From Candidatus Lloydbacteria bacterium CG22_combo_CG10-13_8_21_14_all_47_15 (GTDB lineage Bacteria; Patescibacteriota; Minisyncoccia; Phycocordibacterales; 21-14-all-47-15): a DNA stretch of 64,000 bases. Both the position numbers and the translations under genes were made by a program. Shown here one piece after another: positions 7,032-7,103 of the stretch. The stretch spans positions 7,995-71,994 of the forward strand of contig PCTL01000001.1 in the NCBI GenBank assembly GCA_002771515.1. Reading direction: 5' to 3'. A model generated the notes under the pieces. The model saw only the letters and a program-made list of their open reading frames with translations, was not told the origin of the DNA and did no database searches. Each line of letters starts with the position of its first letter. The first letter of the stretch is position 1.

Positions 7032-7103
7032 TCGGCCTGCCAGGACTCGAACCTGGAACCGCTCGTGTATAAGACGAGAGCTCTACCATTGAGCTACAGG
7101 CCG
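7032..7103 (-). tRNA. tRNA with anticodon UAU (AUA-decoding, Ile-type)
   Basis: 72-nt cloverleaf on the minus strand: acceptor cggcctg/caggccg, D-stem gctc/gagc, anticodon stem ctcgt/acgag with loop cttatac (anticodon tat), T-arm ccagg-ttcgagt-cctgg, discriminator A. No encoded CCA. Confidence 0.75.

Follow-up and report, generated by a model that had tools for sequence, protein, structure and literature searches.

A tRNA-Ile gene with an encoded UAU anticodon beside recG in a Lloydbacteria contig and in related Parcubacteria

The tRNA gene and its neighbours

ARAGORN predicted three RNA genes in the 64-kb window (the whole stretch of DNA that was analysed): a tmRNA, a tRNA-Ser(gct) and, at exactly 7032-7103 on the minus strand, a tRNA-Ile(tat). 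Together with the surrounding protein-coding genes, these make up the following features.

214-595, minus strand: tmRNA (ssrA), the end of the conserved neighbourhood (ARAGORN; Rfam RF00023, 137.9 bits)
668-1114, minus strand: smpB (Pfam SmpB)
1176-3119, plus strand: ftsH (Pfam AAA and Peptidase_M41)
6640-7029, minus strand: ORF of 129 aa, LMW-PTP/ArsC-like, with a CX5R(S) P-loop, CSANISRS (weak N-terminal match to Pfam PF01451)
7030-7031, minus strand: 2-nt spacer, UA, from the discriminator base to the ATG of the downstream ORF (read from the sequence)
7032-7103, minus strand: tRNA-Ile(UAU) gene, 72 nt, CCA not encoded (ARAGORN, Rfam RF00005, minimum-free-energy cloverleaf, family model)
7069-7071, minus strand: anticodon U34-A35-U36 (direct reading; loop C32-U33-U34-A35-U36-A37-C38 at 7067-7073)
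7104-7133, minus strand: 30-nt spacer from the recG stop codon to the 5' end of the tRNA (read from the sequence)
7134-9296, minus strand: recG helicase gene, upstream of the tRNA throughout the clade (Pfam RecG_wedge/DEAD/Helicase_C)
11980-12071, plus strand: tRNA-Ser(gct) (ARAGORN)

The Rfam tRNA model RF00005 matched the minus strand at 7032-7103 over its full length (1-71 of 71) with 71.6 bits (E = 1.2e-13; gathering score 29 bits). The RNA reads CGGCCUG-UA-GCUC-AAUGGUA-GAGC-U-CUCGU-CUUAUAC-ACGAG-CGGUU-CCAGG-UUCGAGU-CCUGG-CAGGCCG-A, with an acceptor stem of 7 bp, a D stem of 4 bp, an anticodon stem of 5 bp, the anticodon loop CUUAUAC, the T loop UUCGAGU and discriminator A73. As expected for RF00005, it has U8, G18-G19, the T-loop motif UUCGA and a 7-nt anticodon loop with U33, and its minimum-free-energy structure is itself the cloverleaf (-29.2 kcal/mol, z = -2.56 versus shuffled sequences). 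The window copy scored 84.2 bits on R1, the covariance model of the family described below. A preliminary description of this DNA had proposed the cloverleaf and left the strand unstated; ARAGORN, Rfam and direct reading agreed with every structural detail of it, placed it on the minus strand and assigned no anticodon other than UAU. The observation of a UAU tRNA at 7032-7103 is confirmed.

Downstream on the same strand lies the phosphatase-like ORF, the product of which begins with MKKLLFVCSANISRSP. The 2-nt gap that had been claimed between the tRNA and the start codon of this LMW-PTP-like ORF is exact: positions 7031-7030 (UA) are followed by ATG at 7029-7027. The match to the Pfam LMWPc profile (PF01451) is just above the cut-off (24.3 versus 23.2 bits) and covers only residues 5-46 of 129. 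Because residue 5 of the ORF aligns with profile position 2, the ATG at 7029 is supported as the true start. Public gene calls differ here, giving either 129 aa or 149 aa, the longer version starting at 7089, inside the tRNA (12208-12657 in locus L001). Judged by the sequence, the 149-aa call that overlaps the tRNA (6640-7089, minus strand) is an annotation artefact, and the practical message is that extension of the phosphatase-like ORF across the tRNA by gene callers is an error.

The preliminary description had presented the tRNA butted against a phosphatase gene as a notable feature. We do not retain this emphasis: the 2-nt junction was confined to contigs of the same species, the relatives' loci contained no homologue of the 129-aa ORF, and the arrangement has no conserved significance. 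There is no sign of the junction as a conserved regulatory device, and it looks incidental, a chance product, peculiar to this species, of dense gene packing in a compact genome. The ORF may plausibly be co-transcribed with recG and the tRNA, because the sole match in a sigma-70-like promoter scan of 6500-9600 lies upstream of recG (9331-9303) and no terminator-like element was found between the tRNA and the ORF. No consensus promoter was detected within the 30-nt spacer between recG and the tRNA, although it contains a TACTAT hexamer 9 nt before the tRNA. Given co-transcription, it is plausible that processing of the tRNA 3' end would leave a nearly leaderless mRNA for the ORF.

Across the clade, the conserved gene order is recG - tRNA(UAU) - ftsH - smpB - tmRNA. 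Of 80 related loci, 55 contain ftsH, which is usually flanked by smpB on the side away from the tRNA, and the tmRNA lies a few kb from the UAU tRNA in most related loci. In the present species, an ABC-transporter cluster and the phosphatase-like ORF are located between ftsH and the tRNA. Contigs with the same RecG are present in several other metagenomic samples. In the assembly of one sample from the same species (L091, 4416-6358), the counterpart of ftsH at 1176-3119 of the window is split into ORFs of 417 and 210 aa, which may reflect a frameshift, an assembly error or a strain variant. On the far side of recG, the plus strand of the window encodes a fused 2-oxoacid:ferredoxin oxidoreductase (9320-11891; POR_N, PFOR_II and TPP_enzyme_C; about 670-707 aa), followed with a 20-nt overlap by a small POR gamma subunit.

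At the opposite end of the neighbourhood, an island of about 7.7 kb on the source contig abuts the 3' end of the tmRNA gene with an overlap of about 35 nt (window 1-249, plus strand, continuing past the window start; L089 10866-18650). It carries genes for a large serine recombinase, an NgoFVII-type restriction enzyme, a C5 DNA methylase and an HTH/M78 pair, and is missing from other strains of the same species (L090, L091 and L002). No convincing att-like direct repeats, and no long ones, were found at the island, which is probably a mobile element integrated at ssrA.

A tRNA family beside recG in Parcubacteria

The gene content of the window fits Parcubacteria (type IV pilus genes, a split transketolase and the small ftsH/smpB/tmRNA cluster). 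Among GTDB species representatives, the closest relatives by RecG were 54-67% identical and all Parcubacteria/Paceibacteria MAGs, from groups named Lloydbacteria, Nomurabacteria, Zambryskibacteria, Taylorbacteria, Yonathbacteria, Vogelbacteria, Campbellbacteria, 'Paceibacterota' and Minisyncoccia. We fetched the loci around the recG orthologues of 80 GTDB species and found a TAT-anticodon tRNA downstream of recG in 62 of them. The tRNA lies on either strand, at a median distance of 633 nt from recG and within 3 kb in 56 of the 62 loci. The UAU tRNA is a selected gene common to at least 62 related Parcubacteria (Paceibacteria) species and is not specific to one genome. The rarity that the preliminary description attributed to such a gene is real for bacteria generally (PMC3575796, PMC12514573) and does not extend to the gene's own lineage.

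Eighteen of the 80 loci lacked the UAU tRNA, and 6 of these 18 have at least 3 kb of sequence downstream of recG. In five of the six, which have no syntenic Ile tRNA, a covariance-model search found no missed copies of the family. The sixth locus, L078, carries a GAU tRNA at the syntenic site: a tRNA-Ile(GAU) at 14880-14954 (minus strand), where relatives have tRNA-Ile(UAU), with an anticodon arm resembling that of the UAU family (C38). From its sequence, this gene may represent a natural switch at position 34 between GAU and UAU forms.

An alignment of 57 distinct UAU tRNA sequences defined the family. Invariant in all 57 are U8, A9, G10, C11, U12, A14, the anticodon-loop residues C32-U33-U34-A35-U36-A37, parts of the T loop, and A73. 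The U12-A23 pair is likewise invariant, C4-G69 occurs in 52 of 57 sequences, and position 38 is always a pyrimidine (C or U). Pairing of the cloverleaf holds in 99.8% of cells, versus 71.2% when the alignment was shuffled and 29-48.5% when partners were slid. Of the 21 pairs, 17 had compensatory changes on both sides, each of the four helices showed covariation, and the covariation score was 0.729 versus 0.171 (shuffled) and at most 0.149 (slid).

The first base pair of the family is C1-G72 in 29 of 57 sequences (including the window copy, at 7103/7033), G1-C72 in 25 and A1-U72 in 3. C1-G72 is uncommon among bacterial elongator tRNAs outside tRNA-Pro. The family model also matched two short tRNA-like stretches for which ARAGORN made no call, one adjoining the UAU tRNA in L008 (12575-12631, minus strand, 26 bits) and one adjoining a tRNA-Ile(GAU) in L016 (21345-21406, minus strand, 39 bits). 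These may be truncated or intron-containing tRNAs, or remnants.

Isoleucine identity and the AUA codon

We compared the family with other tRNAs on the UAU-family model, on which its own members scored 84-97 bits. The two tRNA-Ile(GAU) genes found in the fetched loci scored 89.7 bits (L078) and 82.7 bits, versus 64 bits for tRNA-Thr, 44-46 bits for tRNA-Ala and at most 29 bits for tRNA-Ser. The UAU tRNA has the Ile-type features A73, A37, U12-A23 and C4-G69, all of which are identity elements for E. coli IleRS; A38 is absent and replaced by C or U. In E. coli, A38 reportedly contributes to recognition by IleRS, a result ascribed to Nureki et al. in 1994. As judged by sequence, the body of the UAU tRNA is of the Ile type, and the gene at L078 gives a hint that a change at position 34 links the family to tRNA-Ile1(GAU).

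Codon usage points the same way. In the 45 window ORFs of at least 150 aa, AUA occurs 15.65 times per 1000 codons and makes up 21.7% of Ile codons, a frequency ranked 'high' on a published scale (PMC12514573). In RecG across the clade, ATA accounts for 34% of Ile codons. In the columns of an 81-species RecG codon alignment where ATA occurs, the fractions of other residues were 0.55 for I (ATT/ATC), 0.16 for V, 0.13 for L and 0.03 for M, a profile that resembles those of ATT and ATC and differs from that of ATG. At 8 of the 10 ATA codons of the window recG, Ile encoded by ATT/ATC is the commonest class in other species; of the remaining two, one is mainly Leu (Ile and ATA following closely) and one mainly ATA. 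On this comparative evidence, AUA is an ordinary Ile codon throughout the clade. An AUA-reading tRNA of the Ile type, as the preliminary description had it, is what the Ile-type body and the heavy use of AUA as an Ile codon support.

Decoding of AUA and the lysidine system

The genetic code poses a classic problem in that AUA (Ile) must be told apart from AUG (Met), and bacteria nearly always solve it with the essential enzyme TilS. The canonical pair of TilS and tRNA-Ile2(CAU) performs the same task as that considered here, reading AUA as Ile without reading AUG, and differs in that tRNA-Ile2 has C34. The gene in the window has the anticodon TAT in place of the CAT of a lysidine substrate; because T, not C, is encoded at position 34, its tRNA would not be a substrate of TilS.

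We searched for TilS, for tRNA-Ile2(CAU) and for ileS in small, non-random parts of each genome. For the present genome, these amounted to about 84 kb in total, namely the window and the 10 kb beyond each of its ends on a 153-kb metagenomic contig (ENA ERZ27293400 k141_579333). The PP-loop motif SGGxDS, also in relaxed form, was absent from all six frames of the 64-kb window, and neither the window nor 84 loci (1.28 Mb from relatives) gave a tblastn match to E. coli TilS (best E-value 0.11). In the 1.28 Mb of related loci, the only PP-loop ORFs were GuaA, a QueC-like protein (L074; Pfam QueC 29.5 bits) and chance matches. The 10-kb stretches flanking the window contained neither a PF01171 gene nor a CAU tRNA, their only tRNA being tRNA-Thr(UGU), and tRNAs with a CAT anticodon were likewise absent from the window and from all fetched loci. 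In other bacteria tilS often adjoins ftsH; no tilS was found beside ftsH in the 55 species with that region visible. A profile built from the N-terminal domains of three solved TilS structures and run against 5.8 billion proteins was uninformative for Parcubacteria, all 120 matches listed being near the seeds (Enterobacteria and Aquificae). A search for ileS by its KMSKS motif in the window and fetched loci did not find the gene, the only hit being a chance match inside recG. In the literature, with incomplete coverage, we found nothing linking lysidine, TilS or tRNA-Ile(UAU) with CPR, Patescibacteria or Parcubacteria, and a preprint on tRNA introns in Patescibacteria makes no mention of Ile or UAU.

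We consider it very likely that the gene encodes a functional minor tRNA-Ile(UAU) that reads the abundant AUA codons by direct U34-A pairing and not by way of a lysidine-modified CAU anticodon. Following this logic, the primary transcript would be trimmed by RNase P and a 3' nuclease, and CCA would be added by the CCA-adding enzyme, which is needed because CCA is not encoded. IleRS would charge the tRNA through A35, U36, (t6)A37 and A73, as it does other tRNA-Ile, and charging would need an IleRS that tolerates U34, either M. mobile-like (Trp-to-Arg in the zinc-binding domain) or of the eukaryote type. Misreading of AUG would be kept low by competition from tRNA-Met and, in addition, by properties of the ribosome or the anticodon loop, and the invariant C32 and the pyrimidine at position 38 may help to limit it. 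Two points speak against a functional tRNA-Ile: the C or U in place of A38, and the C1-G72 pair in half of the family. Because the gene is conserved over great evolutionary depth, the sequences suggest that it is the main, and possibly sole, decoder of AUA in the lineage. A wider proposal, that the whole of the Paceibacteria (Parcubacteria) lacks TilS and lysidine and reads AUA solely with the syntenic tRNA-Ile(UAU), is one we advance tentatively, as it falls a little short of an even chance.

Somewhat less probable, in our estimate, is a redundant decoder, with tilS and a tRNA-Ile2(CAU, modified to LAU) also encoded and the UAU tRNA supplementing the decoding of AUA. About 98% of annotated bacterial genomes reportedly contain tilS (PMC12514573), some bacteria have both systems, the 'transition state' of Taniguchi et al. 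(PMC3575796), and our searches covered about 84 kb of the present genome. The evidence against redundancy is indirect: an invariant anticodon kept across species with RecG 54-67% identical would be unusual for a dispensable duplicate, AUA supplies 22-34% of Ile codons, and the 1.28 Mb of related loci, in which the two flanks of ftsH are covered for 55 species, yielded neither TilS nor a CAU tRNA.

Phages often carry tRNA-Ile(TAT), and the strain-variable serine-recombinase island lies about 6.5 kb away, at the tmRNA gene; both observations could suggest that the tRNA was acquired horizontally from a phage or mobile element and boosts translation of AT-rich foreign genes. We regard this as very unlikely. 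The gene keeps its place by recG and ftsH in 62 species, an identical tRNA is present in the island-free strains L090, L091 and L002, its body matches the clade's own tRNA-Ile(GAU), and no mobile-element genes flank it. Horizontal origin is effectively refuted by synteny.

A further rival is that the tRNA has a non-Ile identity or that AUA is reassigned, for example to Met as in many mitochondria. In its favour, bacterial tRNA-Ile does not typically have C1-G72 or a pyrimidine at position 38. This reading is more improbable still: across 81 RecG sequences ATA aligns with ATT/ATC Ile and with Met in only 3%, the body is indistinguishable from the clade's tRNA-Ile(GAU) on the family model, and A73, U12-A23 and C4-G69 are all there. 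A pseudogene or chance tRNA-like sequence, as the 149-aa ORF drawn across the tRNA by some gene callers could imply, is ruled out by covariation across 57 sequences and has a negligible probability, because pairing and covariation in the family are so strong (99.8% pairing, 17 compensatory pairs), with an Rfam match at E = 1.2e-13 and a Pfam match that favours the shorter ORF starting after the tRNA.

The closest parallel to the proposed direct U34-A reading is Mycoplasma mobile, which lacks tilS and uses a tRNA-Ile2(UAU) with unmodified U34 and t6A37 (Taniguchi et al. 2013, PMC3575796). Acceptance of U34 by its IleRS depends on Arg865, and its ribosome rejects AUG (PMC3575796). By all of the sequence-level criteria we applied, the tRNA in the window is a tRNA-Ile(UAU) of the M. 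mobile type: both systems combine a UAU encoded on an Ile tRNA with A37, AUA as an Ile codon and a small, reduced genome, and direct U34-A pairing is the expected decoding mode here too. They differ in several respects. Loss of tilS, unmodified U34, Arg865 of IleRS and rejection of AUG are experimental results for M. mobile, whereas the present reading comes from sequence comparison. For the M. mobile tRNA, an origin from tRNA-Ile2(CAU) is assumed; the present body resembles the clade's tRNA-Ile(GAU) as closely as it does its own family, and no relative with CAU turned up. M. mobile is also a single species, and the present trait extends to at least 62.

In 2013, tRNA-Ile(TAT) in bacteria without tilS was known from nine species in three clades, the mycoplasmas, Bifidobacterium and Neorickettsia (PMC3575796). 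Bifidobacterium and Neorickettsia likewise are bacteria with tRNA-Ile(TAT), and both rely on a eukaryote-type (type 2) IleRS (PMC3575796). Lactobacillus casei, L. plantarum, Cyanothece PCC 7424 and Ferrimonas balearica share the UAU tRNA-Ile and have tilS as well (PMC3575796); such dual-system carriers are scattered species or strains, and deep syntenic conservation has been reported for none of them. In Bacillus subtilis, a suppressor of tilS deletion is a tRNA-Ile1(GAU) with a G34-to-U change (PMC3919564; PMC3575796). Like the present gene, it has a GAU-type body with a UAU anticodon, and it sustains decoding of AUA; but the suppressor is a laboratory state, whereas the present state is natural, fixed and ancient.

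Outside the bacteria, eukaryotic tRNA-Ile(UAU) carries pseudouridine at positions 34 and 36, and Randau et al. are said to have reported a tRNA-Ile(UAU) for Nanoarchaeum equitans in 2005. These tRNAs also have an encoded UAU for AUA but belong to other domains of life. Nanoarchaeum, like the present bacteria, is an ultra-small episymbiont.

Natural exceptions to the TilS system reveal ways of retuning IleRS and the ribosome, and they are relevant to the question whether TilS is a universal antibacterial target. The UAU anticodon is visible in any routine annotation of Parcubacteria MAGs; what is new is a syntenic, anticodon-invariant gene across a large CPR lineage, more than the copy in the window itself. 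If an entire class within the CPR uses tRNA-Ile(UAU), as its syntenic conservation suggests, the known exceptions would grow from a few species to a major radiation. If loss of TilS across the clade were true, this would be by far the largest known group of bacteria without the near-universal and normally essential lysidine system. Such a loss would also imply that IleRS and the decoding centre co-adapted throughout the clade, and it would be a parallel to the tRNA-Ile(UAU) reported for Nanoarchaeum.

A second unusual anticodon was observed in the same set of loci. In 21 related loci, and not in the window, a tRNA-Ser with an encoded ACU anticodon (loop UUACUAA, A34) lies beside tRNA-Ser(GCU); examples are L009 8801-8888, L013 7970-8057, L035 9372-9459, L038 6758-6845 and L044 256-343. 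A34 is unusual in bacterial tRNAs other than tRNA-Arg(ACG), and an ACU tRNA-Ser, if its A34 were deaminated to inosine, would risk reading AGA. The species in the window has only the tRNA-Ser(GCU) at 11980-12071, without an ACU tRNA-Ser.
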